From a virus: DNA of 64,000 nt. The translations under genes were made by a program, and so were the position numbers. The stretch is taken from IMG/VR virus record IMGVR_UViG_3300037465_000544. One strand, 5' to 3'. The notes under the pieces are model-generated. The model had not been told where the DNA came from, made no database searches, and saw nothing but the letters and a program-made list of their open reading frames with translations. Below are positions 1 to 55,824 of the stretch, piece by piece. The first letter of the stretch is position 1. The number at the start of each line of letters is the position of its first letter.

Positions 1-1
1 T

Positions 2-298
2 TTACCTCTTCAACCTATTGAGGTAGTTGCTACTTTGGACAGAAGTGTACGCAACAAGGACAACAAAAATGATTTAAAGCCTGACGGAAGCCTTAAAGCA
101 CCTTATCAGGGCTACAGAATCCGGTTTAAAGAAAGCAATGTAATTGTTGTTGTAGAAGCTGGATCAATACTTGCTGCAGGGGAAGAAGCCTTTAACATAA
201 CCAAATCAGGCAAAGATAAAATTTATGAATTGGTTGCGGATGAAATGGGGCTTGTGAAAGTAGGAAACGGTGCACGTGTAATCTTGCAAGCAGAGTAA
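2..298 (+). CDS. Hypothetical protein, 5'-truncated by window edge
   Basis: Frame is open back to position 2 (LPLQPIEVVATLDRS...); followed by a terminator. Confidence 0.65.
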   Translation, partial: LPLQPIEVVATLDRSVRNKDNKNDLKPDGSLKAPYQGYRIRFKESNVIVVVEAGSILAAGEEAFNITKSGKDKIYELVADEMGLVKVGNGARVILQAE

Positions 299-302
299 AT
301 TT

Positions 303-336
303 AAAAGGGCGGTTGTAACAGACTGCCCTTTTTTTT
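303..336 (+). terminator. Rho-independent terminator
   Basis: AAAAGGGCGGT-TGTAACAG-ACTGCCCTTTT hairpin followed by a T-tract, just after the stop at 298. Confidence 0.8.
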
Positions 337-628
337 ATTTTTTTTGTCAGTCGGGACGAAAATCTATGAGCAAAACTATAGTCCACAAAAAAACATCATA
401 AAAACCACCATAAGTAAATAAGTAAATAAATACTATACTTTTCTACACCTTTTCTCTGTTTTAGTGTTTATTTACTGCGTTGCACATCATATAAATAAAA
501 ACCAATAATGAATAAAAACCAATAACCAAAAAACAAACAACGAAACAATAACAAATTAAACATTGGCATTCTCCTACCAATGCCTTGCCGTAAATAAAAT
601 GGCAAGGTGACACATTAAAAGACTTACT

Positions 629-874
629 TTGGGAGACATTCTGATAGTAGAACCATGGGCTTTGCAAGCGTCCTGTGGCTGTAAGATGACACCTTTGCTG
701 GTGTCTCCATTTCCCTGTTCCGGAGTTCAGGTGGTCCATAATAATCACGGCAATAGCCGGTTTATTAGGCGGATATGTACCGGTATGTATGGAGGATGGG
801 TTGACGTACACAAGTCAGAGACATTACGAATAACAGGCGATAGAAATATCAGCTGGCCAACCAATATGAGATAA
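629..874 (+). CDS. Small hypothetical protein (TTG start)
   Basis: 81-aa ORF with beta-rich, protein-like composition. An in-frame ATG at 599 is cut off by TGA at 608-610, so the start is uncertain. Confidence 0.45.
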   Translation: MGDILIVEPWALQASCGCKMTPLLVSPFPCSGVQVVHNNHGNSRFIRRICTGMYGGWVDVHKSETLRITGDRNISWPTNMR

Positions 875-959
875 CCTTGTAGAAGCTAAACAGTCTCAAT
901 CCTGTTATTTATATTATTTGCATCATTCATTCGTATTACTTATTCCAAAACCAAAACAC

Positions 960-1277
960 ATGAAAGACCAAAATTGGTGGAAAGCAATATATATCATGGC
1001 ATTTTGCGGAATACTGATAATAACCATATCACAAAACAGGATAATAAAACAACAAAAAAACAAATTCAATAACTTAGATTCCGTTTGTTGCGAAGGTCTG
1101 GCCAAAAAAGACAGTATCATCCATAAACAAGACAGCATTATTCGGGTATGGGCAGGATTTCATAATTTAATTCAAATCGCCATTGATTCAAATATGGCCA
1201 AAATAGAACGAAAATATCCTTGGACAAAACCAAAAACAGGACAAAACCAAAACCAAAAACAAACAAAAAACAAATAA
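960..1277 (+). CDS. Small membrane-anchored coiled-coil protein
   Basis: ATG at 960 after A-rich AAAACCAAAACAC; N-terminal hydrophobic helix WWKAIYIMAFCGILIITI. Confidence 0.65.
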   Translation: MKDQNWWKAIYIMAFCGILIITISQNRIIKQQKNKFNNLDSVCCEGLAKKDSIIHKQDSIIRVWAGFHNLIQIAIDSNMAKIERKYPWTKPKTGQNQNQKQTKNK

Positions 1278-1280
1278 CCA

Positions 1281-1553
1281 ATGAGAAAACCGGATTGGGA
1301 AGTATTCGAAAAAAAGTTTAAACCAAATTATAATACAGCACCGGACGAAAAAAGTATCCGCATTTACGATCCGCACAACAAAAAAGATTGGACTATTCTT
1401 AAAAAAACAAAAAAATCATACATTTGGACAATTGTAGATGGGGACAACAAAAACACCTATCTAACTCCTGGATACAGATATGTAAACAGAATAGGATACG
1501 TCATCTGTAAAAATCCTCACCAGTTTGAAAAAACAAGAGACTATAAATACTGA
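1281..1553 (+). CDS. Hypothetical phage protein
   Basis: 90-aa ORF with A-rich leader; motif WTIVDGD...PGYRYVNRIGYVIC resembles small phage proteins. Confidence 0.7.
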   Translation: MRKPDWEVFEKKFKPNYNTAPDEKSIRIYDPHNKKDWTILKKTKKSYIWTIVDGDNKNTYLTPGYRYVNRIGYVICKNPHQFEKTRDYKY

Positions 1554-1618
1554 AACTAAAAAAAGGCCATAGCTTTGTAGCCTGTAATACAAAGCACAGA
1601 AACAAAAACAAATAAACC

Positions 1619-1849
1619 ATGTCACGTAACTCAGGAATCAAAGTGGGACTTGGAACAAGCCGCTTTAAGTATTCAGGAAGGATTTATTCTTCCATCCAAA
1701 CAACAGTAAAAGAAAATTCGACACGCACAACACCACGGGAAAGCGATTTAATTGATGGAATTGATGACGGAGCGTATGCTGAAGATGAAAGATCTGAATC
1801 AGCAAGAATCAAAGAGGGATTTGCTTTAATGAATATGGGAGATGAATAA
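1619..1849 (+). CDS. Hypothetical protein
   Basis: 76-aa ORF after AAATAAACC leader. Confidence 0.55.
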   Translation: MSRNSGIKVGLGTSRFKYSGRIYSSIQTTVKENSTRTTPRESDLIDGIDDGAYAEDERSESARIKEGFALMNMGDE

Positions 1850-1915
1850 TCTCCCATATTCAAAATATTGTTTTTATTATTGTTATTATTCTTATTGTTC
1901 TTAAAAGACAACAAA

Positions 1916-2113
1916 ATGAAAAGATACCAATTTGAAGAAATCACGGCAGCTTTGTCAATTATAATCGCATTGCTTGCCTACAAGTTTGAAATAAACTGGT
2001 TATTTTATATTTACCTTGTAAAAAGCTGCATTGACACTTGGTGTGCTCTGAAAGAAAGTTATAAAAGTGCAAAGGCTTCATTAGCAAAAAAGTCATTGGC
2101 AAAAAAAAAATAA
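1916..2113 (+). CDS. Small membrane protein
   Basis: ATG at 1916 after AAAGACAACAAA; two hydrophobic segments and a basic tail. Confidence 0.55.
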   Translation: MKRYQFEEITAALSIIIALLAYKFEINWLFYIYLVKSCIDTWCALKESYKSAKASLAKKSLAKKK

Positions 2114-2184
2114 AACCAATGATTCATAACCCGATGCCTTTTATTCCGATTATGGCAACCCACCCTTTTTTCAAGGGTTGCGAT

Positions 2185-2276
2185 AAATAGCAGTCCTATG
2201 TAGAATGTTCGGCAGGTGTACAACTGATAGCGTAACCGGACTTAAACAGAAGTGCGATTCTGTTCGGCTGCTATTT
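2185..2276 (+). pseudogene. Degenerate tRNA-Leu(UAA)-like or other structured RNA
   Basis: 11-bp closing stem 2185-2195/2266-2276; D-loop-like AACTGATAG; half anticodon arm CCGGA-CTTAAA; T-loop-like GTGCGATTC. The 3' side of the anticodon stem is missing. Confidence 0.25.
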
Positions 2277-2311
2277 CTTGTAATAATCCTTATCAATAGC
2301 ACAGCAAAGAA

Positions 2312-2359
2312 ATTATTAACTAAAAATAAATATTCATTATTAACTAAAAATAAATATTC
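2312..2359 (+). repeat. Perfect 24-bp tandem duplication
   Basis: ATTATTAACTAAAAATAAATATTC x2 directly upstream of ATG 2362. Confidence 0.9.
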
Positions 2360-2361
2360 AA

Positions 2362-2595
2362 ATGAAAAATTACCGAATTACAAGGAAAAATTACCAAATT
2401 ACAATCGGCTACAAAGCAATAGTGTGTGTTAATGTAAAAGCATCGGATGAAAAAGAAGCTAAAGACATTGCAATAAAAAAGTTCACTAAAAAGAAAGATA
2501 AGATTTACGGGAGTGAAATTGTATTGCAAGATGATAATTTCAAGGCAGATGGAATTTTAGATATGGATGCAACTTGGAATATGTACGATAAGTAA
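2362..2595 (+). CDS. Hypothetical protein with duplicated N-terminal heptapeptide
   Basis: 77-aa ORF; 21-bp imperfect tandem repeat 2364-2405 (19/21) encodes KNYRITR/KNYQITI. Confidence 0.7.
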   Translation: MKNYRITRKNYQITIGYKAIVCVNVKASDEKEAKDIAIKKFTKKKDKIYGSEIVLQDDNFKADGILDMDATWNMYDK

Positions 2596-2716
2596 ATTTT
2601 TGCCTATAAGGGAAGGGCGAGGAACGAGGCTTGTGCTAAACCCGTGTTAGTTCTCAGAAGGAAAAGCTTAATTAAAGATTAAAAGCACTACATTTGCTAC
2701 GAAAAACGGCAATTGT

Positions 2717-2850
2717 GCATAACGTAAAAGCATTGCCGCAGTAGTGGCATTTGAAAAACAAAAGTTTAAAATATGACAAACAGCTTAATAGAATTACCAA
2801 AGCCCAAATTTGCTACCGAAGCCACTATTGTCGGAAATGCAGTATTATCT
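2717..2850 (+). repeat. attC-like site 1 (134 bp)
   Basis: GCATAAC...GCATTGCCGCAGTAGTGGC / GCCACTATTGTCGGAAATGC...ATTATCT; loop contains ATG 2773. Confidence 0.7.
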
Positions 2851-3303
2851 GCTGCTGCATCTCGTGGGTTCTTCGGCATAGGAATTTTTAACGGCAAGAC
2901 CATTGAAAATGTTGGCACTTTATGGCGTAGTGCTGATTTAATGGGTGCAAAATTCATCTTCACTATTGGTAAACGCTATCGTAAACAGGCAAGCGATACA
3001 ATGAAGTCTTTTAGACACATTCCGCTTTACCATTACGATACATTTGAAGAATTTTATAAATCGCTTCCTTACGATTGCCGATTAGTTGGGATTGAGTTGC
3101 ATGATAAAAGCGAATACATACAATCGTTTTTGCACCCTGAAAGATGCGTTTACTTGCTTGGTGCAGAAGATAACGGCTTGTCAAACAGCGTGATTGACAA
3201 GTGCCATAAACTAATCCAATTGCCAGGAAGATTTTCAATGAATGTTGCTGTTGCGGGGTCTATCGTAATGTATGACCGAATTAGTAAGCTGTCGCAGCAG
3301 TAG
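2773..3303 (+). CDS. SPOUT (SpoU/TrmH/TrmL family) RNA 2'-O-ribose methyltransferase
   Basis: Motif 1 ENVGTLWRSADLMGA, motif 2 YLLGAEDNGLS and motif 3 IQLPGRFSMNVAVAGSIVMYDR; catalytic domain only. Confidence 0.9.
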   Translation: MTNSLIELPKPKFATEATIVGNAVLSAAASRGFFGIGIFNGKTIENVGTLWRSADLMGAKFIFTIGKRYRKQASDTMKSFRHIPLYHYDTFEEFYKSLPYDCRLVGIELHDKSEYIQSFLHPERCVYLLGAEDNGLSNSVIDKCHKLIQLPGRFSMNVAVAGSIVMYDRISKLSQQ

Positions 3304-3304
3304 C

Positions 3305-3437
3305 CGATAATGGTAGGCAGATTTGCATTCGGTGGGGCGTTACACCACCACAGTTAATTTGAAACACTAAATTTTATAATATGCAGAAAGATTCAAAAAA
3401 GCACGACACCCCCACTGACGCAAATAATGTGTTAGCG
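3305..3437 (+). repeat. attC-like site 2 (133 bp)
   Basis: CGATAAT...ATTTGCATTCGGTGGGGCGT / ACACCCCCACTGACGCAAAT...GTTAGCG; loop contains ATG 3381. Confidence 0.75.
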
Positions 3438-3587
3438 GTTGTTTTACCTCCTAAAGAAGATATTTTAAGAGAAGCAGAAAAGCAAATATCTGATTGGTTG
3501 GAAGGAAGCACGGAAGAGGAAAAGGAACATTACAGAGTAGCATTCAGAAGGTCATACGAGTATATTGTTAGGGTTACGAAAGAATAA
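3381..3587 (+). CDS. Cassette-borne hypothetical protein
   Basis: 68 aa; leader MQKDSKKHDTPTDANNV lies in site 2; stop lies in the end repeat. Confidence 0.7.
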   Translation: MQKDSKKHDTPTDANNVLAVVLPPKEDILREAEKQISDWLEGSTEEEKEHYRVAFRRSYEYIVRVTKE

Positions 3588-3588
3588 C

Positions 3589-3719
3589 CGCTAACGTCCG
3601 ACAGCTTTGCGATGGGCGGGATTAGTAACTAAAAATTTGATATGAAAACAGAACTTAATAATAATAATAAACTTTCAATGGAGCAAGAACCCCTGCCTAT
3701 TGCAAAGGTGGTGTTACCT
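3589..3719 (+). repeat. attC-like site 3 (131 bp)
   Basis: CGCTAAC...GCTTTGCGATGGGCGGG / CCCCTGCCTATTGCAAAGG...GTTACCT; loop contains ATG 3642. Confidence 0.78.
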
Positions 3720-3881
3720 GACGTTTTTTCTTCGAAGGAAATGATTGCTTTCGGCAACTTTATCCGAGATAATTACTATGTAGCAGGTTCGCCAAGAATG
3801 TTATCCTATAACCCATCTAAATACCCACACGCAAAAGTTGACGAAATTTTTGTGTATTGGTGTATTGAAAATGGCAGGTAA
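3642..3881 (+). CDS. Cassette-borne hypothetical protein
   Basis: 79 aa; stop TAA 3879-3881 lies within the AGGTAAC left core of site 4. Confidence 0.7.
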   Translation: MKTELNNNNKLSMEQEPLPIAKVVLPDVFSSKEMIAFGNFIRDNYYVAGSPRMLSYNPSKYPHAKVDEIFVYWCIENGR

Positions 3882-4120
3882 CGCATCGGGGCTTTCTGTC
3901 GGGTTTTTTGCGGATTGAAAACTAAAACTTAATTATATGACACAAAAGGAAATAAAACAATTAGCCGAAAAGATATACGAGGAGTATATTTTTGGGGGCA
4001 TAGGCAGACCAAAATACGGGGTTGATTTTGATAAACGGCATATCATACAGGCACTTGAAATGATGGTGCATAAAACGAGGGAATGGCATGCAAAAAACTT
4101 GCAGAAAGCCCATGTTACCG
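3876..4120 (+). repeat. attC-like site 4 (245 bp, long-loop class)
   Basis: AGGTAAC...GGGCTTTCTGTCGGGTTTTTTGC / GCAAAAAACTTGCAGAAAGCCC...GTTACCG; the site holds the first ~59 codons of ORF 3937. Confidence 0.7.
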
Positions 4121-4776
4121 GTTCGTCACTTACGGATATAAGACAACCCGTATTAAAAGCCGGTGCGGCAATTGAAACGAAAATTATCACAGAACACACA
4201 AAAGCTACTATGTTAGAAAACATTGAGCAAAACTTAATTGAATTAATGGCAGACTATTTAGATAGCGAAAGCCTACAACTTGACCAAGCAATAGCATTAG
4301 TGAAAGACCCTATTCCGAGAGAAGAAAGTGAATTGCATATCAGAATGGCAAAAGCCGCTTTTCTCGAATATAAGAAAACTATTGTTAATGCAAACGTTAG
4401 TAGGGTTGAACGTGGTTGGGGCGGGCATTTCATTTGCTCCCACCGATGCTTGTTTCGTAGAAATACCTTACTGACTTATGGTGATATTAATATAGTTGTT
4501 TCAACTGTCGGATTGATGCTGACGGATACTGACAAAACTGGCAGCAATAGGTTTAGTACTATTGGTTATAATAGGCACTACGAAACAATGGCTTTTCATG
4601 CAGCCGATGATAAGTACAAAGATGCGGATGTGAGCAGGCAAATCAGTTTTAAAAGTGATTGTGCTATCGCTGAATTGTATGCCGAATTAAGAGCAAATGA
4701 AATGCACGAAAGAGTTGTAGCGGAGATTACAGAAAGATTGCTAAAAGGAGAAAAGTTTGAACCTACGGAGGGGTAG
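3937..4776 (+). CDS. Mosaic cassette-borne hypothetical protein
   Basis: 279 aa with internal GTT cores at 4114 and 4396 and an internal A-rich in-frame ATG at 4210. C-terminal domain ERGWGGHFIC...RHYETMAF resembles a small phage protein. Confidence 0.7.
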   Translation: MTQKEIKQLAEKIYEEYIFGGIGRPKYGVDFDKRHIIQALEMMVHKTREWHAKNLQKAHVTGSSLTDIRQPVLKAGAAIETKIITEHTKATMLENIEQNLIELMADYLDSESLQLDQAIALVKDPIPREESELHIRMAKAAFLEYKKTIVNANVSRVERGWGGHFICSHRCLFRRNTLLTYGDINIVVSTVGLMLTDTDKTGSNRFSTIGYNRHYETMAFHAADDKYKDADVSRQISFKSDCAIAELYAELRANEMHERVVAEITERLLKGEKFEPTEG

Positions 4777-4783
4777 CTATTGA

Positions 4784-4908
4784 TGCTAACGTATCGGGGG
4801 TTTGCGATGGCGGGCTTCCACTAAAATAAAAACGAAGATATGAACTCAAAAATTAAAAACGAAACTGTCCACGAAGCACAGCCCGCTATTGCAAACCCAT
4901 TGTTAGCG
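4784..4908 (+). repeat. attC-like site 5 (125 bp)
   Basis: TGCTAAC...GTTTGCGATGGCGGGCT / AGCCCGCTATTGCAAAC...GTTAGCG; loop contains ATG 4840. Confidence 0.8.
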
Positions 4909-5235
4909 GTAGTGCCTGAACGCATACTTTGTTCAGCTATTTGGTATAAGGAAATCAAACCTGTTCCATCCAAATTCAGCATACACGGGAAAACGATAGT
5001 AGGCAATATAAGCGAAGGTGTTGTTGTTTGCGGACATAGACACTATAACTGCATACTTACTCTAATTCATTTGTCAGGATATTCTACTACAACACCTGAT
5101 TGCGGAGAATATGAGCAAGGTTTCCTAACATCCAACAACAGGTTTGTCGGAAGAAAAGAAGCTGGACAAATTGCATTTGCAGCAGGTCAAACGAAAGAAT
5201 TAAAAGAAACATTGTTCAGCGAAGATGTCTGGTAG
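4840..5235 (+). CDS. Cassette-borne conserved phage hypothetical protein
   Basis: 131 aa; motifs ILCSAIWY, CGHRH, EQGFLTSNNRFVGRKEA and C-terminal LFSEDVW. Confidence 0.75.
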   Translation: MNSKIKNETVHEAQPAIANPLLAVVPERILCSAIWYKEIKPVPSKFSIHGKTIVGNISEGVVVCGHRHYNCILTLIHLSGYSTTTPDCGEYEQGFLTSNNRFVGRKEAGQIAFAAGQTKELKETLFSEDVW

Positions 5236-5441
5236 GCATTACCGCTAACTCATTTATTAGCGAACATTTTTTATTTTTACTTTAATGATAAACAATGAGA
5301 TAAAAATAAATTTGAAGTTCTACGAATATAGGCTCAGACTCAAAAAGGGGTAATACTATCATAGTTTTGCCTCGATTATTAGTTGAGGCAAGCAAAAAAC
5401 ACAAATAAGCAAACCAAAATAATAAACCAAAACAACAAACC

Positions 5442-5696
5442 ATGGAATACACATATGTAACACCACGCAAACTAAAGAGAAACTTTAACGAACTAAACTT
5501 TGGAGTAAGAAAATTAGGACCAAAAACCGGACGAAAAAACAACAGAAAGATGAACAAGGCAAGAGGAATTATTATAGTTCCTGATGAAAAAATTAAAATA
5601 GAATTAATAAAAAAATCAAAACATGTCAAGAATAAAATCATCAGAATCTGGAATAATATCTGTCATCCCAAAAAACAAATCAAAATATACAGATAA
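5442..5696 (+). CDS. Small basic hypothetical protein
   Basis: 84-aa K/R-rich ORF after AAAACAACAAACC leader. Confidence 0.55.
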   Translation: MEYTYVTPRKLKRNFNELNFGVRKLGPKTGRKNNRKMNKARGIIIVPDEKIKIELIKKSKHVKNKIIRIWNNICHPKKQIKIYR

Positions 5697-5760
5697 AAAT
5701 AAAGCTTTTTTGACACTGCTCTTTCCGGGTAAAATTTAAACAAATAACCCCAACAAGGGC

Positions 5761-5809
5761 AAACAGGCTTGTAAATAAACAATTAGAGGAGTTTACAAGC
5801 CTGTTTTTT
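5761..5809 (+). terminator. Terminator-like inverted repeat
   Basis: Perfect 15-bp IR AAACAGGCTTGTAAA (5761-5775) / TTTACAAGCCTGTTT (5792-5806) running into a T-tract. Confidence 0.7.
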
Positions 5810-5875
5810 AAATAAAAATCAGAAACAAAAGCCAATAATACCATCAATACTAATAATCCTTAAAAATAAAAACAC

Positions 5876-6358
5876 ATGAAAAAAATGATTTATTTTGCTT
5901 TAACCGCATTTTTACTGTTTGTCGGGCTTTCTATACTCCAAGCATCAGAAACGGCATCCTATACAACAAAATCAAGCACAGAAGGCTCCGATTTAGGCAC
6001 ATTGACTGTCAAAGGGAATGTTTATGATTCGTCATACAGTTACCCAGCCAAAGTTAAAATCTATATTTATAATATAGACGAAGGCACATATAAGATAGTG
6101 GATGCCTTATCGGGGAAATTCAGCATCAAACTTCCTTTGGGAGGAAATTACAATCTGGTATTCCACAAATCCGGTTATCAAAGCAAAACAATCACCGTAA
6201 ATGCTCTGTCTGAAAACAAAAAAGACTACCTGTTTGAATTTGACGTTTATATCAACAGACTTGAGGTTGTAAATGCAAAAACATCCTTGATAAGCAATAA
6301 AGTAGCAGAAATTTATTATGACAAATCAAAAGATTGTTTTTCTTATCTGAAGAAATGA
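5876..6358 (+). CDS. Secreted protein with carboxypeptidase-regulatory-like (CarboxypepD_reg) beta-sandwich domain
   Basis: Signal peptide MKKMIYFALTAFLLFVGLSILQA; pattern TVKGNVYD...G.FSIKLP..GNYNLVFHKSGYQSKTITV. Confidence 0.7.
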   Translation: MKKMIYFALTAFLLFVGLSILQASETASYTTKSSTEGSDLGTLTVKGNVYDSSYSYPAKVKIYIYNIDEGTYKIVDALSGKFSIKLPLGGNYNLVFHKSGYQSKTITVNALSENKKDYLFEFDVYINRLEVVNAKTSLISNKVAEIYYDKSKDCFSYLKK

Positions 6359-6419
6359 TAAATCCTGAATGCCGAATATTAAATAGCAAACCCTGAATCC
6401 AAAAAAAATAACAACAATT

Positions 6420-6557
6420 ATGATTACAAACATTTTTACAACCATTGTATTACCATTCGTTATAACCGTTGCAATGATATTGATTTGTTATCAGATATCA
6501 CGTCCTTGTTCATCAAGAAGAAAAACAAATCGGAAATTCATAAATAAAAACAAATAA
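6420..6557 (+). CDS. 45-aa single-pass membrane peptide (not in ORF track)
   Basis: Translated by hand: MITNIFTTIVLPFVITVAMILICYQISRPCSSRRKTNRKFINKNK*, after an A-rich leader. Confidence 0.55.
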   Translation: MITNIFTTIVLPFVITVAMILICYQISRPCSSRRKTNRKFINKNK

Positions 6558-6577
6558 AAACACCAAAACCAAAAACC

Positions 6578-7420
6578 ATGATTGCCATAACGATAATTGC
6601 ACTGTTGTGTATAATCTTTGCTGTAGCTCAGGAATTGTTAATCCTACGCAAAAACAAAGAGATTATTCTTTACAAAAAAAGAATTGAAACAATTAATGAT
6701 GAAAATGAAATGTTAAATAATATTAATTTTCTTCTGAAAAATCAAAATAAAATGCTAAAGAAAAATAATGAAAGCAGCATAGATGTAATCAAAAAACAAA
6801 ATGAATTGCTGAAAATATTGCCGGATCCGGAAGATTTTGTAAAGATAAAAACAATTCTAAATAATACAAGAGATGCTTTGTTCTGCTATCAGGAAATAAT
6901 TTCAAAAAAAGAGGTACAATACGCTTTAATTACTTCCGATAATCAGGAAAAAACACTAAAGCAGCTTGAGATTCTGAAAGAAAAAATGGAAAGGGTGAAA
7001 AATGATTTACTTGACTTTAATCCGGAAGAAAAAAGAAAAAAGAATATCCAATTTGCAGAAAAGAAAGAAAAAGAACTGAATGATTTGTTTATGAAAGAAA
7101 ATGGAAGAAGGCCAGCAAATGCTTATTCAGAAGAAAAAAAGGATAAAGAAAAAGAAAATACTGAGATTTCTTTTGAATCCATGTATGCAAAATTAAAAAA
7201 AGAAACACTATCGCTCCCGGACAAAATTAACAACTATGAAAATTTTGTAATGTACGTCAACATTCTGATAACGCTTAAGCAGCTGGACAATCCATTAATC
7301 ACATATGACGAATCGGACGAATCTCTTAAAGACATAAAGCGAATGATTGAAAAATTCACCTTCATGATTGAAGAGGCAAAAAAGGAAAATCCCGCCTGGA
7401 ATCAAGCAAAAATTAAATAA
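6578..7420 (+). CDS. Membrane-anchored coiled-coil protein
   Basis: N-terminal TM helix MIAITIIALLCIIFAVA followed by an E/K/N-rich coiled coil. Confidence 0.7.
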   Translation: MIAITIIALLCIIFAVAQELLILRKNKEIILYKKRIETINDENEMLNNINFLLKNQNKMLKKNNESSIDVIKKQNELLKILPDPEDFVKIKTILNNTRDALFCYQEIISKKEVQYALITSDNQEKTLKQLEILKEKMERVKNDLLDFNPEEKRKKNIQFAEKKEKELNDLFMKENGRRPANAYSEEKKDKEKENTEISFESMYAKLKKETLSLPDKINNYENFVMYVNILITLKQLDNPLITYDESDESLKDIKRMIEKFTFMIEEAKKENPAWNQAKIK

Positions 7421-7437
7421 AAATCAAAAACAAAACC

Positions 7438-7701
7438 ATGAAACAAAAAAATCAAATAAGCTACACAAACGAAAAACCGAAAACAAAAAACCGTTTCAAT
7501 AAAAACATATATCAGGTTAAATTCATTTTTTCGTCCGGAAAGAAGTATAATTCACAAAAAGAAGCTTCTGCATTCACTCTTTTTGGATATATCAGTGGAA
7601 AAGAATTGAATCAAAAAGGCATCAAAAAAAGCATAACGGATTACGCGGAAAGAAACAATATTCCTGCAGGATATTACGCCCATATAGCAGACTTGGATTA
7701 A
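7438..7701 (+). CDS. Hypothetical protein
   Basis: 87-aa ORF after AAAACAAAACC leader. Confidence 0.65.
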   Translation: MKQKNQISYTNEKPKTKNRFNKNIYQVKFIFSSGKKYNSQKEASAFTLFGYISGKELNQKGIKKSITDYAERNNIPAGYYAHIADLD

Positions 7702-7912
7702 ACTTGTATTGATAGCTGAAAATACTGGCCGTGCAAGGATGCCTTCTAACATATTGTCTAAACGAATCGTTTGCGATTCTCAGTAAGGCAATTAATACAA
7801 GGATAGCAGGAAAGGATAGCCGCAATTCGTAAGAGGAGTATTGGCCAATACAGATTTCCCATTGAAGCAGCCGGCTTGGGAATCCATATACCGGAAGCCA
7901 TTTACAAGCCAT
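7622..7912 (-). CDS. Possible lone antisense membrane protein
   Basis: A-rich leader AATAAAATTACTAATAA before ATG; hydrophobic stretch LSFPAILVLIALLRIA; fills an otherwise non-coding gap. Confidence 0.3.
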   Translation of the reverse strand: MACKWLPVYGFPSRLLQWEICIGQYSSYELRLSFPAILVLIALLRIANDSFRQYVRRHPCTASIFSYQYKFNPSLLYGRNILQEYCFFPRNPLCFF

Positions 7913-8220
7913 TTATTAGTAATTTTATTGGTAATTTCATTACTTATCATTACTAAGTAAGTAAATGGTTTCCGAGTAAACGCTATATAGGTGTCTATGA
8001 AAACAAGATATTTTTGGAGTTACGACAAACCGATAAAATTGAGTTTTTTTAGATAAAATCTTTGTGCTTGGAAAACAATTATAAAAGTAAAAGGGCAATA
8101 CCTTTTTATCTGTTATAGTGGTCGAAGGTTTTCTTTGTGATAAGTGTAGCTTATCTCCTTGCAGAAAAGGCCAATTATCAATCCAAATTCAATGTCGCCA
8201 CTAAATTTAAACACACAGAA

Positions 8221-8610
8221 ATGAAGAAAAAGAAAAGAATATTCATGAATATTTCAAAAAGGATACGCAATAAAATATACAAAAAAGCATACAACCATTT
8301 TTGCTCATACCCGACAGACCATAATTATATATGCCCAACCATTAAAAAATGTTTTCGGAGATATTTTTGTAAGCCAAAAGATAAAAAGAAATGGCAAGAT
8401 TATTGGCTGTCTGATATTGAATTAAATACAGTCTTACCTGAACTAAATTTATTTTATCCATACGAAAATTTTAATTCAGAATATAGATCAGCGTGGCCAA
8501 TTGAAAAAAAAGAAAGAAAAATTATCTTATGCTTTCTCTGGGCAATGACTCTGCCTAAAAAAACTCTTTACAAAACGAAAAAAAATAAAAAACTAAAAAA
8601 GAGAAAATGA
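8221..8610 (+). CDS. Hypothetical basic protein
   Basis: ATG at 8221 is more plausible than the upstream GTG; stop overlaps the next start. Confidence 0.6.
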   Translation: MKKKKRIFMNISKRIRNKIYKKAYNHFCSYPTDHNYICPTIKKCFRRYFCKPKDKKKWQDYWLSDIELNTVLPELNLFYPYENFNSEYRSAWPIEKKERKIILCFLWAMTLPKKTLYKTKKNKKLKKRK

Positions 8611-9224
8611 ATCAGGATAAAATTCAAAAAAAAACAGATCAGCAAGAAGCCGAATTTCATATTAAAATTGAAAACACAGATGAATGCAGATTGAAATACA
8701 TAGAAAGAATAAAACAAAAAATCGAATTTGGAGAATATCCGGAAAACCGAATCAATGATGATGTCGCAGACGGAATAGTATTTTTAATTTCTTCTCCTCA
8801 CGCTATAGAAGCTATGTGCATTGGCATGAAAAAGTACGCTACTTTACTTGGGGAGCAAATAAAAAAAGAATTAAAAATACAAGGATTTGATTCTTTTCTG
8901 GAATTGGCAAAAAGTCCCAAAAATTTGCAATATTATAATGAAATTGAAAAAGAATTTTATATAGTTAGGGATACGGTAATTCTGAACATGATTTATTATG
9001 ATTTAATACATAATAAAAGTGCTCCAAATAACCTTAAAGAGCTAAATGAAATGAATTATTTGTACAGAAGCATTATAGTATTGAATCAAAAAGGGCAAAT
9101 AGAAGAAAATCTGAAAAACCTGTGTAAAGTAAATCTCATCGGACCAACGCAATTACGAGTGGGAATTGAAATAGTAAAAAATATTCATAACAATCTGCAT
9201 AATAATCCATATAATAATCCATAA
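8607..9224 (+). CDS. Hypothetical helical protein
   Basis: 205-aa ORF, ATGA-coupled to the previous gene. Confidence 0.7.
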   Translation: MNQDKIQKKTDQQEAEFHIKIENTDECRLKYIERIKQKIEFGEYPENRINDDVADGIVFLISSPHAIEAMCIGMKKYATLLGEQIKKELKIQGFDSFLELAKSPKNLQYYNEIEKEFYIVRDTVILNMIYYDLIHNKSAPNNLKELNEMNYLYRSIIVLNQKGQIEENLKNLCKVNLIGPTQLRVGIEIVKNIHNNLHNNPYNNP

Positions 9225-29500: not shown

Positions 29501-30202
29501 GTGAATTGCAATAATCGGGTTGTACCCTTCAAACCCTTCGCGATATACGATCCCCAATCCCTGAAATTCTGAAGATTTTAAATCAGAATATTGAATATAA
29601 CGTGTTCCCGGAGTATAATCTATATAGCGAAGCATATTATTGATTGTATTATTGCTATAACGCGATTCGCCTTTTATCTTACCGGGAAAATACACTTGAA
29701 GTGTATCATAGTCTGCACCCTCGTTCAACCATTTTACAAATTTAGCCTTATGTTTGGTTTCAAATTCGGTAAACAAAGGCACCACTTTTTCGCGAATAAT
29801 CTGCTTAATTTCCGAATCACTCATTCCGGTAAAATCAAATTCCGTGTCATAATAATTGTATGACATGGTTTTAGGATTTATATTATTAAAAATGCGGTTT
29901 ACAAGCTCTTCTTTTGAGAATGAAGAATAAGTTCTAAATGTTCCGGTTTTTTTGTGTAACAAGTCAGCCAGGTCACGAATATCCTTTATTTTAGCAGGCT
30001 GATCCTTAAATCCAAATTCTTCATGAATATTATCATCCTGAGAATAGACAGGATCAGGTTTTTCTAAAACATAATTAACAACTTCACGAGGGATATCTCC
30101 TTCAAATTTCAGCCATAAACGGTAAAATTCCTTGATGCCTAACTCTTTTATTAAAGAGGCATTTAAAGGATCATTTATATTTGGGCATCCAGCTACAGGC
30201 AT
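26501..30202 (-). CDS. Large internal virion (ejected cargo) protein
   Basis: 1233 aa, mostly helical, overlapping the end of the RNAP polyprotein gene by 10 nt. Confidence 0.7.
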   Translation of the reverse strand: MPVAGCPNINDPLNASLIKELGIKEFYRLWLKFEGDIPREVVNYVLEKPDPVYSQDDNIHEEFGFKDQPAKIKDIRDLADLLHKKTGTFRTYSSFSKEELVNRIFNNINPKTMSYNYYDTEFDFTGMSDSEIKQIIREKVVPLFTEFETKHKAKFVKWLNEGADYDTLQVYFPGKIKGESRYSNNTINNMLRYIDYTPGTRYIQYSDLKSSEFQGLGIVYREGFEGYNPIIAIHNSTQGNPSISIFDTTSMGLSREGLEIGYLLSAFESNEELELKGMKYSNREGSIRKFLIGMTTMALKEANPNLSIRKSAVISIHGREANPSFVLMDSSDFLAEAKGASQVKKFMDLLPANMQEMLKNEVLYKSSYGQDTLSVLKEWLDTNYVQKNNTDSRLGSGYFWAQNAVDEIDKQLNGEGSVEDLIDIIQNRQRILENTLSSEALYSNQEYTRLAAALRQLTEKKSFEKNDVKDMTQAQMNYTNSHNIENDILQWAKDIVLNAQNLIVEKLRNVQKKNVEFVKKIEDVFFLKSGNVIAEKIKDRVSDTGGKRFEKMFKKSIVKDAKSGGLMQVYNGEIHWDENDPDTKKAILNGDITKEHVAYGKFLMDTFEDMYLRQYVHENRFRYRENGKFNETKAMADAKKWLPKRWKKGRVPIVSRSVAELILSGNLDNTKRGFRNFLYKMSNSDRIFEEEFKEFGKANFEVSNSFLSELGDESDFGSDFKLERMGLALADPTTKEIVVVDAEKNKSISTNLELIFNYFMLAGERKIIFEKKALPAVNSARALLSTLNGTPQQQANNLKWLQIFSDRIIHGKTQPNQAGVVDPWINTMVALTTFNGLALNPFVASTSFVINTAQLYTTAMANSLGGTNYYGYKEANKAVALFHTPAGYKKMRALMEFYKVADMGEHEIANSPLWLQTNKNFFQSHYMHKMNWLTDYNIRGIVMMAQMIKDGSFDAHEVNKEGNIIYNIKKDKRFYVAGKLTDEGKAKLDFMKKLMVQQGILENEKDDIKRGYDYDSARLFKWLSDKYIVGGIDPTTQTAMQSYTFGKLFNQFKQYLPDKVYNYIGKRAYSTAGGQIVYKNGMAVWEKAEIEGIFRSILSGVKELRSAHKQGLTYGEAWKNLSAVKKRNYVKLAADIAMFSILYGLYAGLTADWDDDDEEAFLKDSRFLRVFKFGALDMLTFAPNNFLWSVSNPFPAVDQALRIWNVVMGDTRELERTVPLGTTIKEFGDLVEE

Positions 30203-33200
30203 TCTTTTAGCTTATTTTCAACGTCAATATCTGAAACATCGTTGCCAAAATTAATGCTTTCAACTTTGCCAACTACATAATCAGAAGTTATTTTTATAAC
30301 TTTTTCTAACACGCTGTTAGGAACAACAGGGGCCCCTTCCGGAAACATTCGATTAATAAATCCCGTAAGAGCATCAATAAAACGATCCCAAAAAGAAGGG
30401 CTACCTTTCATTTTGCTTTCTATGCCTGCAAGAGCTTTCTGAAATTCGGGATTCACAAAAGCTTCAGATATAAACTCCCCGACATTGGTAAGCCCGTAAT
30501 AAACATTTTGTGGCAAAACATTTTTTGCTTCATTATACAAGTTTGTAATAGCATCAACAAACTCGATTTCATTAGCAGTCATTGTATTTCTGTCCTTTCT
30601 GAAAACAGCAAGCGTAAGCTGGTGCATTAATTCATGTAAAAAAGTAGCTTCATAGCGAAGTCCGGACTTAATTTTATCTAAATTCATATAAAAATTATTA
30701 GAGTCTAATTCAAAAAACGCATTGGCAACTTGCCCATTTGAATTAGGGACCGTAAAACGGTATTCTGTTTTAGTGTCCATCAACCTTACATTGCCTTTCG
30801 CTAAGATGTAATTATTTGGCATATTTAACAAAATGCTTGCAAGTGTCCTGAAATGGCTAAGGTTGGAATTATTCATAATCATCCTAAGAATTTCGCGTTT
30901 ATCGTAAGACATGAAATATTTTCTCAAATTTTCTTTATCATTATCAAAATATTTACTCATTTTATTTATAACGCCTTTTTCCGATGAAGAAGAAAATATA
31001 ATATCAGAAAGATCCCTTTTCAGATCAATGGTAATTTCATTCCAAGTATTACCATATTCATCAGTAACTAATTTAGGATTATAACCAGCTTTATCTAATA
31101 CATTCTTTAATTGAGTTTCATAAAACTTAAATACTCCACCAAATGTACCTGTCAATCCTTGTTCTTCTAATGTTTTAAGTTCTTGTTTAAGTCGGTTTAT
31201 TTGATTAGGAATTTTAGCAATTTGTCTTTCTAATATTCTTTTATCACTATCAATTAACTTAGCGGTTCTTAATTCATTCTGTTTATTATCCAACCTATAT
31301 TCAAGTTCTTTAATCCTATCTTCTTTCTCTTTCCTAAATTCTTCTATCGTACTACCACCTTCTATTTTTACAGTAGTATTACCTGTTGGGAATTTAATAG
31401 TAGTAAATCCTTGTTTAGCTGATTGTTGAATAATACTCTGCGTTATAAACTTAACCCAATTATCTTTTTGATTTAGAAGTTGAAGGAATTGGTTATCAGA
31501 TTCTTTATAATTTATTTTTTTACCTAAATTACTAAAAGCATCAGTAGCATTAGTAATTTTATTTAGAGCAAGTTGTTTTTTCTCTCTACCAGTAACTTGC
31601 CATTTATCTACACCATTTTCTTGTATCTTTTTAATAGTTACATTATTGTATGTTTGTTTTAGTTGTTCTGCATAATCTTTTGCAGAATTTTCATTTTCAA
31701 AAGTTTTCTTAACATTATCTTGAAAAGGGTCAGATTGCATTTCATGTATTACAACTTCACCTGTTTTATTATTAAAACTTGCTCTTATGTGTGCAATATC
31801 ATCTCCTGTACTAAATGGTTCATGTTTTCTTGCAGCATCATTTAATTTCATATTAGGAACTTGTATTCTTAGTTCTTTATATTCCCAATCTCCTTCTATA
31901 TATGGTCTTTCAGATAAGTTTTGTAATGCTTTATCGTATTTAGCATTTATTTTTATTTTTTGTTCTTCGTAAGTTTTATCTTGATAATAATTTCTACCAA
32001 TAGCTAAGGAAGGATTACTTTTAGGTATAAAATTTAATATTACATCAAACGCTTTTTCTATATTTTTTAAATTCCTATCTGATATATTATTAGTTTTTAT
32101 ACCAAATAAATTTAAAACTGCATTGATTATTTTTTTAAAAATTCCTATTTTTTCTTGTTTTAAACTGTTTCTAAATTCGCTATTAGATAATATTTCACTT
32201 ACAAATTCTTTAATATTAGTAAATCCATAAGCTTTTTTGTTAATTGTATTATTTTTTAATTCTTGAAAAATTGAAATTATATCATTATAAAATTGTTTTT
32301 CTTCTACTGTTTTTCTACTTTCTAATGCTTTTACAGTATAAGCATGAATATATTCATGTACTATTCCTTCTAATATTTCTGTTTCACTCCATATATTTTT
32401 AGCATTTTTATTCAAAGCAATAATACCTTCATTTGGGTTAAATCTTGCTAATGCTGTTTTAGTCCAACTAAAATTTTCAACACCATTAAATTTAATAATA
32501 TTATCAATTTTAGAAGAATTGGTTATTAATACATCAATAACTCTTTTTAAATGCTCATCTTCAGTTTTATTTTTTACTGTGTTTAAAACATCTTTAGTAT
32601 TATATCCCTTTAAATTTGCAAATTCATTAAATAAATTATCATTATTATATTGTTTATAATTACTATTGTTTTTATAATAATTGTTTTTATTAAATAATTT
32701 ATCTAATTCTTCTAACTCTCTCTGTCTATTCTTCTCTATTTCTTCTCTTGTATTACCATGTGCTGTTAGATTTTTATAGATTTGAGTTGGGTCTCCTGCT
32801 TGCACACTTCTACTATTAAGCATGTCTTGTGTAACAGTAAACTCTTGCCCATATTCATCTGTTAAAACTTGCCCTACTTTATGTTTTTCATGAGTAGCAA
32901 CATTAATCTCAATTACTTGACTGTAATTAGCAATAAAATTCACTAATTTATCTTCAATAGTATCTCCTTCTTGTTGTTTGAGTAATTCAACTTGTTCTTT
33001 TGGTACTTGTGCTTCTTGTAATATTTTATCAATACTCCAGTTATTCTTTTTACCTTTTTCTATAATAGCTTTACCCCTTTCGGAAGTAAGAATAGCAACA
33101 GTCTTTAAAGAATAATTTACTCTTTTTAATCTTTCATTATACGCCACTTCTTCTTCATCAATACTATAAGCAATATTCGAGTTTTTATGCTTAATCGTAA

Positions 33201-36200
33201 TTTGATTTTTCTTTTTGTCAATCAAAAGATCAACAACAGTTCCGTCTGATAAGAAAGCAGCTCCGTTGCTATACCCTCGAGCATTGGCATTTTTAATTAC
33301 AACATTGTGCCCTTTCTTAAACTCCTTGTATTTTTCATAAGACATTCTTTTAAAAGTTTGTCCTGAGGTAATCGTGCTTTCTGCAGGATTATAAGGATTA
33401 AAACGATCTAAAAACTTTCCTTTGTAAATTACTTGTGGATTATCGCTTTTAACCATCCCGATAGAATTGTAAATTCCATACCGCTTTCCTTCCTTGTATT
33501 GGTCGGGACGAGTATCTTCTGTCCAAGAGTCATTATAATAATCCAGCAAATCGGTTTCATAAGTGGCTACATCAGCAAGAAATACATTATCTAAAATATC
33601 AAATAATGACGCTGATTTTCCATTTCCCAAATCAAGATAAGTTTCTTTCTCGTTAGCATCTTGCATGGCATAAACAGAGAGCTCATCCAAGAAGGAGTTA
33701 AATCCGGCAAATATAGAACTGTCCATTACTTGCCCAATAGAATTTTGACGAAAAACAAAACCATCTTTCATTAAATGATAAAGAGCAAACTTCTCTTTTA
33801 GCCCGGGCTGTATCTGGTCTAATTTGTTAAAATCAGAAATAATATCTGCCTTTTGCTGTTCATTTATCGAGGCTCCATCACGCAATTCAAGTATAGGCCC
33901 TATTGTATCATTTTTATCATAAGAAAGACGATTCAGAAATTTATTCCCTACATGATCCTTCATTTCATCATTACTTTTTATTTCGTCAATAAGGTTACTT
34001 ACGAATTGCGGAAACTCCATACCATATCGGTAGCGTCCTTCAGGAGTAGAAATATTAATCATTTCGCTGCCTGTAATGAGTGAGGTGGTTGAAGGTAATA
34101 TTGCCGTTTGATGCTTTTGATTAAAATAAAGTGCAATAAAAAACTTCTCTAATTGATTGTAAAAAGCATAATACTTTTTTTCTGAAGGAAAATTAATTTT
34201 TTTCGATTCAAAAAAGCGGTTAAAAATTTCTTTTACCAATGGGCTATTACGCAAAAATCCTATATTAAAATTCCCCTTATTATCCACGCTTCCGGAATAA
34301 AATTCTCGAATAGTATAAAGAGTATTTAGATATTCTTTAATGTGCGGAAGTGTATCTATAACAGCTCCTATATTGATAAACTTGCGAATTGCTTTTTCTT
34401 TTGCTTTTTCTTCTGAAAGTTCTTCCGGTGAAAGAAACGACTTTTTAGACAAATACCATTCGGTATTTTTTTGCTTTTTTCCGGACAAATAGTCTTCAAG
34501 ACTTTGATTTAAAGAAAACTCAATATCCTCAATCATCTTATCCAATTCATAATCAAACACAGGGATTCCGTTCACATTCAACGAAAGGATATTGTTCATT
34601 CTCCGGATCTGTTCTCCAAGGTAAACATGGTCAAGAAATTCCTGAAGATTCTTTATTTGCTTTGACCGATATGCAGCAGCTTCATTCATTGCATTGGGCA
34701 AATCCTGTTTAAGCTTAGAAAGCTCAAGAGCTATCTGATCCAAATCTAAATTAGCTCCAGCTCTAAAGGATCCGGATTCTTTAGCTTCTTGATATTCTTC
34801 AATATCCGCTTCCGATAAAATATTTTCCAACTCAGCAATTCTTTCTGCCGTTACCGGTATGACAGGTTCATTTTGCAACCTTGTAATCTGATTATGTATT
34901 GCATCCACTAAAGTATATGGCTTGCCGAATTTGTTTCTTCCGCCACGAATAACCTGTCCGCCTACAAGAAGAGGAGTAATTGATTGCCGAACATAAACAT
35001 CATTTATGGCCGCGAGAATTTCAGGATTCTGGAAAAAAGATAAAGCTCTCACAGTGTCATATCCGCGAATAGCCATAGCCATAAGAGAATTTGCGTTTAT
35101 GAGCCCTACGTTAAAAGCACCCAAAATAAGCTCTTTAGCATTATCCACAGAAGCATTAAGCAATTCACTTAAGAATTGAATTACAAACTTTCCGGTATCT
35201 GTTTTTCCATTAGCCGACATCTCAAATCCGGAAATCATATTACTTATTTTTTGTTCTTTGCTGCGGAAGTTATTAACATTTATTGCATGATTCAAAAAGG
35301 AATAGGCCTTATTAGCATTGGCGGCTATACCAACAATGTCTTTACCTGAATGAATCTGCTCGTACATATAAGCATTGGAAGAAAAATCATTGAATTTTCC
35401 AAACAACGATTTTATTCTCTTAAGAGAGGGATCCCTTTCTTCTTTTTGTTTAAGAAAATCTTTTATTTCACTAAGAGAAGTAGGAGTATGGGTAATTTCA
35501 TAATTTTCAGGATCATTGTAATAATCCATCACAAGACCAAGCAATTTATTCTGATAAAATTCAATCGTGCCTAAAGCCGGTAAATTACCTTGCTCATCCA
35601 CATAATTGAAATAAACACTTAATTGGTCAATGTCAAAATCGGATCCATCCAAAACATTTTTAGCCGAAGAAATATAAATGGTATTGCTATTATCGTTAAT
35701 CCATCCCACTACTCTGCCTAACCCGGCACCGCTTGGAGCTGAAGATGGTGTACGGGCGAATATAACATTTAGCAATTTCTCAAATGTCTGTAACTTTTCC
35801 GGACTATTGGCAGCAATGAATTCTCTGGCTTGTTGAACGGACATATTAGGATTTATCCCAAATTGGGCGACATAACTAAAAGGGATAATTATCTCATTTG
35901 GTTTTAATCCTCGCTTTGGTAAGGCATCAATCTGTTTGTCGTCCAAACCAATTGCACGCAAATCTTTACGCATCATTATTTGCCCCTGATAGTCAAATAT
36001 GTCAAATAAAAATGCAGGAGCCTGATTCATTCGTACGCCATTCATAGGAGGCTTGATAGCATTTTTGGTAATCTTATTTCCAAACATTTGAATCAGCTTG
36101 GTACGAAGAATAGGCAAATCAGGAGTAATAGACCTGTTATTAAGCATATCTACAATTTGCCCTACTTCTCCCATTTGTTCGGACGCCTTTAATCCCATCT

Positions 36201-55161: not shown

Positions 55162-55824
55162 TTACTTTATAAAGCGTTTAGGAAAACGAAGTTTTGGAAT
55201 TATATTCATCGAAGCCATAGCCAAACGCTCCATGTCATCCCGTGTAAAGTGACGAAATCCGGATTTAGCTTTCTGAACGTAATTTCCATACATTGTATTT
55301 ATGAATTCCCATCTGGAATTATCAATTTTGCCGTTAAGCCAATCTTCAAAAAGCAATTTAGTAAGGGCGTACCAATAACAAGCCTCTTCATGTCCTTCTT
55401 TAATGAGAGGATATCCTGTTTCCGGATCAATTGGAATACCAATATAATCAACTAAAACTTTTAGCGTTCCGTCAACAGGAGGAGATGTGTTTTGTGTATA
55501 AGCATTAGTAAAAGAATTCTGTTGAAAAATGAGATAAGAGCCGTTGTTTTCATAATTATAAACAGGACAATCTCTGCAATTAGCACTTTTCACTTGCAAC
55601 ACTCTGTAAATATTGCATGGAAGCAAGGCTTTTCGATTTACTACGTCTATAGGAACATCGTTGAATCGCTGAAAACCATAAAAATCACCGATATTAATTT
55701 CACATTCAGCACACCATTCCACCAAATCGTAAATATCAAACTCAAGCGACTTGAAATTACGCGATATTTTTGCTGCGATTGTTTCTGCTGTTACCCATTT
55801 TGTTCCGAGTGAAGTGTGTGCCAT
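55162..55824 (-). CDS. Ring / tail tubular protein
   Basis: 220 aa; LPCNIYRVL, DYIGIPID...GYPLI...EEACYWY; position between the IHF-like and stabilisation genes. Confidence 0.65.
   Translation of the reverse strand: MAHTSLGTKWVTAETIAAKISRNFKSLEFDIYDLVEWCAECEINIGDFYGFQRFNDVPIDVVNRKALLPCNIYRVLQVKSANCRDCPVYNYENNGSYLIFQQNSFTNAYTQNTSPPVDGTLKVLVDYIGIPIDPETGYPLIKEGHEEACYWYALTKLLFEDWLNGKIDNSRWEFINTMYGNYVQKAKSGFRHFTRDDMERLAMASMNIIPKLRFPKRFIK

Follow-up and report, generated by a model that had tools for sequence, protein, structure and literature searches.

A probable five-cassette array of a Bacteroidota integron-like system in a crAss-like phage

Here, we describe an array of genes and folded sites in the virus record IMGVR_UViG_3300037465_000544, which was analysed as one stretch of 64,000 nucleotides (the window). 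The array spans positions 2646-5310 and contains five genes, each with an imperfect palindrome 5' of it; all of its genes and sites are on the + strand. The initial annotation had described five genes parted by imperfect hairpins of 134, 133, 131, 245 and 125 bp, with TAAC or TAAT as left core and GTTA or ATTA as right core, and had read them as a shufflable array of circular cassettes inserted by an IntI-like or related recombinase. The cores are confirmed at all five sites, and the coordinates reproduce the lengths exactly (three flanking bases are counted on each side). Measured from core to core, four of the five sites are 119-128 nt long and, as had been pointed out, lie in the size range of integron attC sites (~57-141 bp), site 4 being 239 nt long. 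The features are, from left to right:

2621-2649, + strand: left boundary, a lone right arm with a GTTA core (2646-2649) that resembles the right-arm consensus ..GC.AAACCC.T GTTAG
2650-2719, + strand: short unit of ~70 nt without an open reading frame (ORF), from the half-site to site 1; its ends are not complementary
2720-2847, + strand: site 1, TAAC...ATTA, anchored stem of -30.9 kcal/mol, aligns with the site family described below; the ATG of gene 1 (2773) is in the loop
2773-3303, + strand: gene 1, SpoU/TrmH-type methyltransferase (PF00588 SpoU_methylase, E = 3.5e-22, residues 42-167); the first 24 codons come from site 1
3308-3434, + strand: site 2, TAAT...GTTA, stem of -25 to -27 kcal/mol, included in the family alignment; the ATG of gene 2 (3381) is in the loop
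3381-3587, + strand: gene 2, 68 aa, with its body between GTTAGCGGTTGTT and AATAACCGCTAAC; inverted repeat I24, 92%
3592-3716, + strand: site 3, TAAC...GTTA, stem of -32.3 kcal/mol; the ATG of gene 3 (3642) is in the loop
3642-3881, + strand: gene 3, 79 aa, with its stop codon within the next TAAC core; inverted repeat I14, 87%
3879-4117, + strand: site 4, TAAC...GTTA, with a long loop and 231 nt between the cores, stem of -35.1 kcal/mol; the ATG at 3937 and 59 codons are inside the site
3937-4776, + strand: gene 4, a fusion ORF in three parts, namely the site-4 leader, then part A, then part B
4787-4905, + strand: site 5, TAAC...GTTA, 19-bp stem of -38.3 kcal/mol with two mismatches, both G.T on the + strand; the ATG of gene 5 (4840) is in the loop
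4840-5235, + strand: gene 5, 131 aa, phrog_839, with its body between GTTAGCGGTAGTGCCT and AGGCATTACCGCTAAC; inverted repeat I5, 94%
5246-5310, + strand: right boundary, a putative attI-like core CGCTAAC-N6-ATTAGCG, i.e. the last TAAC, TCATTT, ATTAGCG and an A/T-rich tail

At all five sites, the A-rich hairpin loop holds the ATG of the gene that follows (2773, 3381, 3642, 3937 and 4840), and in all five genes the reading frame that begins there passes through the right arm and its GTTA core before it reaches the gene body. The site itself encodes 17-24 leader codons, and 59 at site 4. Mismatches in the stems are largely G.T on the + strand. Anchored TAAC...GTTA stems of -27 kcal/mol or below occur ~1.5 times per simulated 64 kb, both strands together, and the window contains four of them in 2.2 kb of one strand, plus the weaker site 2. 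No left arm that would match the half-site at 2621-2649 was found upstream of it, and the array of a complete 43.7-kb phage, G002, likewise opens with a right-half site. The unit at 2650-2719 is probably a deletion remnant.

Among the five genes, a Pfam match was obtained for gene 1 only; for gene 2, Pfam and PHROG searches gave no match. An Rfam scan of window positions 1-9000 returned nothing relevant (Rfam does not include the curated covariance model for attC). In comparisons of the array with GenBank phages by megablast and blastn, a related array was not found, and a gene-5 homologue in Sphingomonas phage PAU was the only match.

The left-arm pattern was used to search IMG/VR contigs and a set of species-representative genomes. 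It recovered nine further IMG/VR contigs and >120 matches in the species-representative genomes, nearly all of them in Bacteroidota, including Flavobacterium, Pedobacter, Chryseobacterium, Chitinophagaceae and Saprospiraceae. When 34 sites were aligned (23 bacterial, 7 from other phages and 4 of the window, site 2 among them), the window sites matched those of Pedobacter, Flavobacterium, Chryseobacterium and other genera column by column. The consensus has 19 pairs, 14 of which show compensatory double changes; the TAACG/TGTTA pairing is nearly invariant, central A-T, A-T and G.T pairs are present in 34/34 sites, and AAC and GTT cores in an imperfect palindrome, as in attC sites, are found in nearly all aligned sites. 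Bacterial and phage sites share a modal length of ~126 nt. When folded as DNA, the TAACG strand forms an R box (TAACG/TGTTA), then a bulge of 4 nt, a helix of 4 bp, a bulge of 1 nt, a 12-16-bp stem and a variable loop. The conserved 4-nt and 1-nt bulges on this strand resemble the spacer and extrahelical bases of canonical attC sites in kind, although their layout differs. Thus, the window sites are members of a large Bacteroidota family of attC-like sites, TAACG...TGTTA.

Further loci with sites of this family were noticed. In Flavobacterium phage tooticki6-1 (L017), an isolated and sequenced phage, eight family sites lie at 300-4900 among four DNA methyltransferase genes and small ORFs. Two contigs filed as genomes, L033 and L039 (the latter binned as a Nitrosotalea metagenome-assembled genome, MAG), carry arrays of the reversed phage type described below with start codons in the loops, and are probably phage contigs mis-binned into MAGs.

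The initial annotation had noted that the sequence starting at a right core is complementary to the end of its own gene, and its four pairs were recovered in a repeat search as the inverted repeats I7 (2840-2858/3294-3312), I24 (3431-3443/3583-3595, 92%), I14 (3713-3727/3868-3882, 87%) and I5 (4902-4917/5234-5249, 94%). When the 8 nt beyond the 4-nt cores are compared, the own far ends of cassettes 1-5 match at 6, 7, 6, 1 and 7 of 8 positions (the two values of 7, for cassettes 2 and 5, were counted by hand and the remaining ones by script), and the two sides of sites 1-5 match at 2, 1, 3, 3 and 4 of 8. As had been observed for the cores, the two sides of a current site often mismatch, and gene 4, with 1/8, is the exception that the initial annotation had implied. 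Random pairs reach at least 6/8 in 2% of cases, and four of the five window cassettes reach 6-7. In these four, the R-box halves are complementary within one cassette rather than within a site of the array.

The same rule holds in a set of 206 phage and bacterial cassettes. Own ends match on average at 4.8/8 positions and 55% reach at least 6, as opposed to 2.7/8 for array partners, i.e. the two sides of one site, and 2.4/8 for random pairs from different loci (own ends vs array partners, p = 5e-25). In L011, five cassettes have terminal repeats of their own, 7-14 nt long, three of which are perfect. A cassette end that pairs with its own far end is expected if the site of a circular form is split on insertion.

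The orientation of the genes relative to the fold differs between bacteria and phages. For 236 bacterial sites, genes are antisense to TAACG at 190 and on the TAACG strand at 19; by contrast, for 29 phage sites, genes are antisense at 4 and on the TAACG strand at 21, and at the three window sites that were scored, genes are on the TAACG strand in 3/3 cases and antisense in none. In the window, all genes lie on the folding strand, unlike in attC arrays, where ORFs lie opposite to it. Because picking sites by energy on one strand is biased, strand bias was assessed on motif-defined bacterial sites, among which the TAACG strand folds better at 77 vs 36 (p = 4e-5). Since this strand is not the mRNA strand in bacteria, the fold is a feature of the DNA.

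The bacterial cassette genes are directed away from the recombinase and lie on the strand opposite to TAACG, so that the TAACG strand is the equivalent of the integron bottom strand. Integrons exchange strands at G|TT on the top strand. Because the + strand of the window is the bottom-strand equivalent, the crossover would most likely fall in the left core, at TAA|C on this strand. Exchange at this point would have the consequence that a hairpin and the gene downstream of it travel as one unit. The initial annotation had placed the boundary at G|TT in the right core; its AAC/GTT cores hold, its crossover point would give way to TAA|C by strand equivalence, and the circle junction that it predicted, 3431 joined to 2845, would be the wrong one for a unit bounded at TAA|C.

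The leaders that the sites contribute to the genes appear as add-ons, because the homologues of the gene bodies begin after GTTA. For gene 5, the L011 methyltransferase and the SpoU gene, alignment with homologues begins only just after GTTA; the homologues of gene 1 in 8 phage contigs align from residue 29-36 on, and those of gene 5 in isolated phages start at residue 25-27. That five of the five loop ATGs stay in frame into the genes argues that the leaders would be translated. Gene 5 reads the shared nucleotides of arm and core as PAIANPLLAVV, and the L011 methyltransferase reads them as NPLLHIADVSGS. Conservation at the peptide level was considered as the cause of the shared leaders and is ruled out, since the frame in which these nucleotides are read differs between the two genes; this use of different frames points to selection at the nucleotide level. 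In the loops, no clean match to the Bacteroidota -7 promoter motif was seen by eye.

Elsewhere, the site family is linked to a recombinase. In Pedobacter agri, an array of family sites ends ~0.8 kb from the gene for a 292-aa tyrosine recombinase at L139:1429-2307, in two Flavobacterium genomes an array likewise adjoins a tyrosine recombinase, and homologues of the recombinase share an 8-kb locus with family sites in ~10 further genome loci. The recombinase is also present in the phage contigs L002, at 8063-8890, and L003. Aligned with VchIntIA (2A3V), the P. agri protein gives a two-piece alignment with 13 residues where IntI has a 58-residue segment containing the IntI-specific insertion; it scores 216 bits with TIGR02249, under the cut-off of 265, and 234 with NF040815 (XerA/integron integrase), over the cut-off of 220. 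By sequence, the array-linked enzyme is a predicted Xer/IntI-like tyrosine recombinase rather than a canonical IntI, as the insertion of ~45 residues in the catalytic domain that marks canonical integron integrases is absent. Smyshlyaev et al. (2021, PMC8138268) point out that not all of the "integron-like" recombinase subgroup has kept this insertion, although integrons require it in order to function. Thus, the linked recombinase family lacks a domain held essential for integron function.

Two observations concern the loci with a recombinase. At L002 4700-8900 and L003 6371-7165, both IMG/VR contigs of putative phage DNA, reversed cassettes, an attI-like junction (TACAAC and then a TTCGTAAATCAAATTT motif) and the recombinase gene lie together, and the TTCGTAAATCAAATTT motif is also found next to the P. 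agri recombinase; L002 and L003 are complete integron-like platforms on putative phage DNA. P. agri (G006) has a second array of the same sites on another contig (C2:285-294 kb) with no recombinase match nearby, so that this genome has both a complete platform and a chromosomal CALIN (cluster of attC sites lacking an integrase). The window array also corresponds to the definition of a CALIN (at least 2 close sites and no integrase nearby), with five sites in 2.2 kb and no recombinase found by tblastn over the window or by Pfam on 30 of its ORFs; it is of the CALIN type in the part covered and probably mobilised in trans.

Cassettes of the window recur as units in unrelated phage contigs. The unit of cassette 3 (3588-3883) is 90-91% identical in the contigs L160 and L161, and the homology stops at both TAAC cores; in L160, cassette 3 is the last of the array, ends in GGCAGGTAAC and is followed by unrelated DNA directly after TAAC. 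Cassette 5 (4794-5249) is 93% identical in G002, and site 4 (3871-4152) is 96% identical in the same phage with a different gene body behind it. Beyond cassette 5, site 4 and the terminal element described next, the window and G002 have nothing in common, even by tblastx. The two phages co-occur in the same freshwater metagenome.

The right end of the array consists of CCGCTAAC, TCATTT, ATTAGCG and then an A/T-rich tail. G002 has the same 61 nt that follow the last TAAC here, placed behind a different cassette; behind a third cassette, the identity is ~78%. This element sits at the array end where the recombinase gene is found in P. agri and L002, and its two inverted 7-mers round a 6-nt spacer have the usual layout of a tyrosine-recombinase core site. 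We infer that it may be an attI-like site.

Three further points relate to these contigs. In L160, the stretch 2745-3500 right after the last TAAC core is GC-rich, unlike the phage part, and this contig may be chimeric or contain a junction with other DNA. In the source metagenome, a joint of 5249 to 3879 was considered as an excision circle or a rearranged array and rejected; it belongs to a 484-nt contig of G002 with a 78-aa cassette between those points. In G002 (L001), a direct duplication of ~78 nt with 3 mismatches (5808-5885 and 7439-7516) flanks the array and comprises the first codons of the downstream 238-aa gene, which suggests that the whole array entered the start of this gene or was duplicated together with that start.

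The carrier is a crAss-like phage, as the initial annotation had it: the - strand encodes a crAss tail ring protein (55162-55824, PF24228, 2.9e-23) and an ORF of 5710 aa (30193-47325), and the assignment is based on these two. A syntenic crAss-like relative, L168, whose helicase is 49% identical, lacks these sites and cassettes, which marks the array as an accessory island. A closer relative, L167 (94%), does not reach the array, so that the comparison of the locus is that with L168. With two query proteins, no close relative was found in IMG/VR, and JGI metagenomes gave one contig of 1.3 kb.

Based on these data, we suggest that window 2646-5310 is a five-cassette array of a Bacteroidota integron-like gene-capture system in a crAss-like phage, and we put the probability of this reading at roughly 0.78. 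In the mechanism that we propose, an Xer/IntI-like tyrosine recombinase supplied by the host or a co-infecting phage would exchange strands at TAA|C. The mobile unit would be [C-hairpin-GTTA-gene body-TAA], and a unit of this form accounts for the pairing of a cassette's two ends with one another instead of with the adjoining ends in the array. In the phage, the gene would lie on the folding strand with the hairpin at its 5' end; the A-rich loop would give the translation start and the leader codons, possibly also a promoter, with the right arm and core being translated, and an attI-like double-stranded core would close the array. In a wider view, which we regard as evenly balanced between right and wrong, virulent Bacteroidota phages, crAss-like ones among them, would keep a mirror-image cassette pool of their own, in which the folded site is also a portable 5' expression module that provides the start codon, a leader peptide and perhaps a promoter; the cassettes would be exchanged by Xer-like enzymes devoid of the IntI insertion, and the whole would represent a separate or ancestral branch of integrons that standard tools miss.

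Several observations weigh against the integron-like reading. No recombinase gene was found in the 64-kb window by tblastn over its whole length with the array-linked recombinase, nor by Pfam among 30 of its ORFs (not every ORF was scanned); the gene calls on the 3.5 kb left of the window are without a recorded Pfam hit, and PF00589 was not found in five array-bearing IMG/VR contigs, one of them complete. The ends of gene 4 are not complementary. In other contigs, site 4 together with 37 nt beyond GTTA, and site 3 together with 13 nt beyond GTTA, stand in front of different gene bodies; exchange at TAA|C does not by itself account for this, and either close kinship of the sites or ordinary recombination has to be assumed in addition. 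Identity between the shared cassettes is 90-96% rather than complete, indicating that the transfers are not very recent. Neither a circular junction nor a presence/absence variant of a cassette was found, the only joint in the source metagenome being that of the G002 contig. Finally, the one site that IntI1 failed to recombine in a study of phage sites, P12002L_attC1 of Polaribacter phage P12002L (PMC9892861), belongs to the same family, with TAACG...TGTTA in a methyltransferase region.

These points also bear on what had been claimed at the outset. Of the shufflable array of circular cassettes, a cassette array built by site-specific recombination at folded sites stands, and current activity is conjectural, no circular junction having been found; the reads across self-circle junctions that the initial annotation had suggested looking for did not appear, and the sole joint belongs to phage G002. 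Of the IntI-like or related recombinase, the related Xer/IntI-like enzyme adjoining family sites stands, and a canonical IntI does not, given the missing insertion and a family member that IntI1 did not recombine. In other phage contigs, the array is absent from L168, cassette breakpoints fall at TAAC cores in L160 and L161, and some breakpoints lie 13-37 nt beyond GTTA.

The off-core breakpoints would also be understandable if the hairpins were portable regulatory modules (stem-loop, promoter and start) that spread by homologous recombination between arms of 20-40 nt, with no dedicated recombinase. Such modules reportedly exist in T4-type phages as PeSLs (said to have been described by Arbiol and colleagues in 2010), which combine a stem-loop with start signals between small early genes and are thought to drive modular shuffling, reportedly through homologous recombination. 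The PeSLs and the window sites are alike in being stem-loops with start signals between small genes, the arm sequences are conserved between our sites, the start regions in the loops are A-rich, and the failure to find a recombinase gene in the window would pose no difficulty. However, homologous exchange predicts neither the cassette-specific complementarity of 7-16 nt at the ends nor homology that stops exactly at TAAC, and it leaves unexplained why the same sites are found in bacterial chromosomes next to a tyrosine recombinase, with the genes there on the opposite strand; PeSLs themselves are not known to have cassette-specific terminal complementarity or a linked tyrosine recombinase. We consider this explanation unlikely.

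Less likely still, and in our view quite improbable, is that the structures act in RNA only, in translational control or processing with the start codon in the loop, and that the array is a fixed, immobile operon. This would agree with the better-folding strand being the mRNA strand in the phage, with stem mismatches that are compatible with G.U pairing and with start codons in unstructured A-rich loops, a type of start that would suit Shine-Dalgarno-less initiation in Bacteroidota. It does not agree with the preference for the same strand in bacteria, where this strand is antisense to the genes, with the finding of the cassettes in unrelated phages beside different neighbours, or with a syntenic relative, L168, that has no array. 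A role in RNA could be a secondary use of the sites. The notion that the mover is a different single-stranded DNA enzyme, an IS200/IS605-type TnpA or a REP-associated Y1 transposase cutting beside hairpins at tetranucleotides, is very unlikely, although HUH enzymes as such were not searched for: what recurs beside the arrays is an Xer/IntI-group tyrosine recombinase, and the own-end rule, the putative attI-like core and one gene per unit fit integron logic. In its favour are the constant tetranucleotide TAAC next to the hairpins and the better folding of one of the two strands.

Integrons are known as gene-capture devices of bacteria and are held to rely on IntI and to be very rare in Bacteroidota. 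The integron-like system proposed here shares with sedentary chromosomal integrons such as that of Vibrio cholerae (~125-nt repeats) one gene per cassette, sites of ~126 nt with AAC/GTT cores, matching of the R boxes within a cassette, one strand that folds better and a putative attI-like end by the recombinase. It is unlike them in that the recombinase of the family lacks the ~45-residue IntI insertion, that 4-nt and 1-nt bulges appear to take the place of the canonical spacer and extrahelical bases, and that the phage genes are on the folding strand. Closer in kind are the attC clusters without an integrase (CALINs) in virulent phage genomes described by Qi, Rajabal, Ghaly, Tetu and Gillings (2023, PMC9892861). 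These also have attC-type hairpins between accessory genes and no integrase, and methyltransferase cassettes are common in both sets; P12002L_attC1 was predicted there by HattCI only and not by the Infernal attC model. By contrast, that paper does not report reversed orientation, start codons within the sites or a non-IntI recombinase, and the carrier here is crAss-like. Clusters of attC sites in phages have thus been published since 2023, and the literature that we searched describes no phage cassettes in reversed orientation, no attC site with a start codon in it and none from a crAss-like phage.

With the integron-like reading, a virulent crAss-like phage would handle its accessory genes by integron logic, but with a non-IntI recombinase, flipped genes and a site that is translated as the start of the gene. 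If the system is active, it would allow plug-in swapping of accessory genes, for example of methyltransferases with a possible part in counter-defence, and one type of site would link the gene pools of phages and hosts. An active array would also be a natural case of recombination sites within coding sequence, of which, to our knowledge, only synthetic designs have been shown (Nivina et al. 2020).

Gene 4 is composite. Its residues 1-72, 84-162 and 154-278 match separate loci; part A corresponds to a stand-alone 69-aa gene in L006, and part B is homologous to L005 from residue 154. A relic right arm with a GTTAG core lies at ~4380-4401, and residue 154 coincides with the GTTAG at 4397. Within part B, window positions 4422-4439 and 4691-4708 form an inverted repeat with 17/18 matches, 251 nt apart and at no core.

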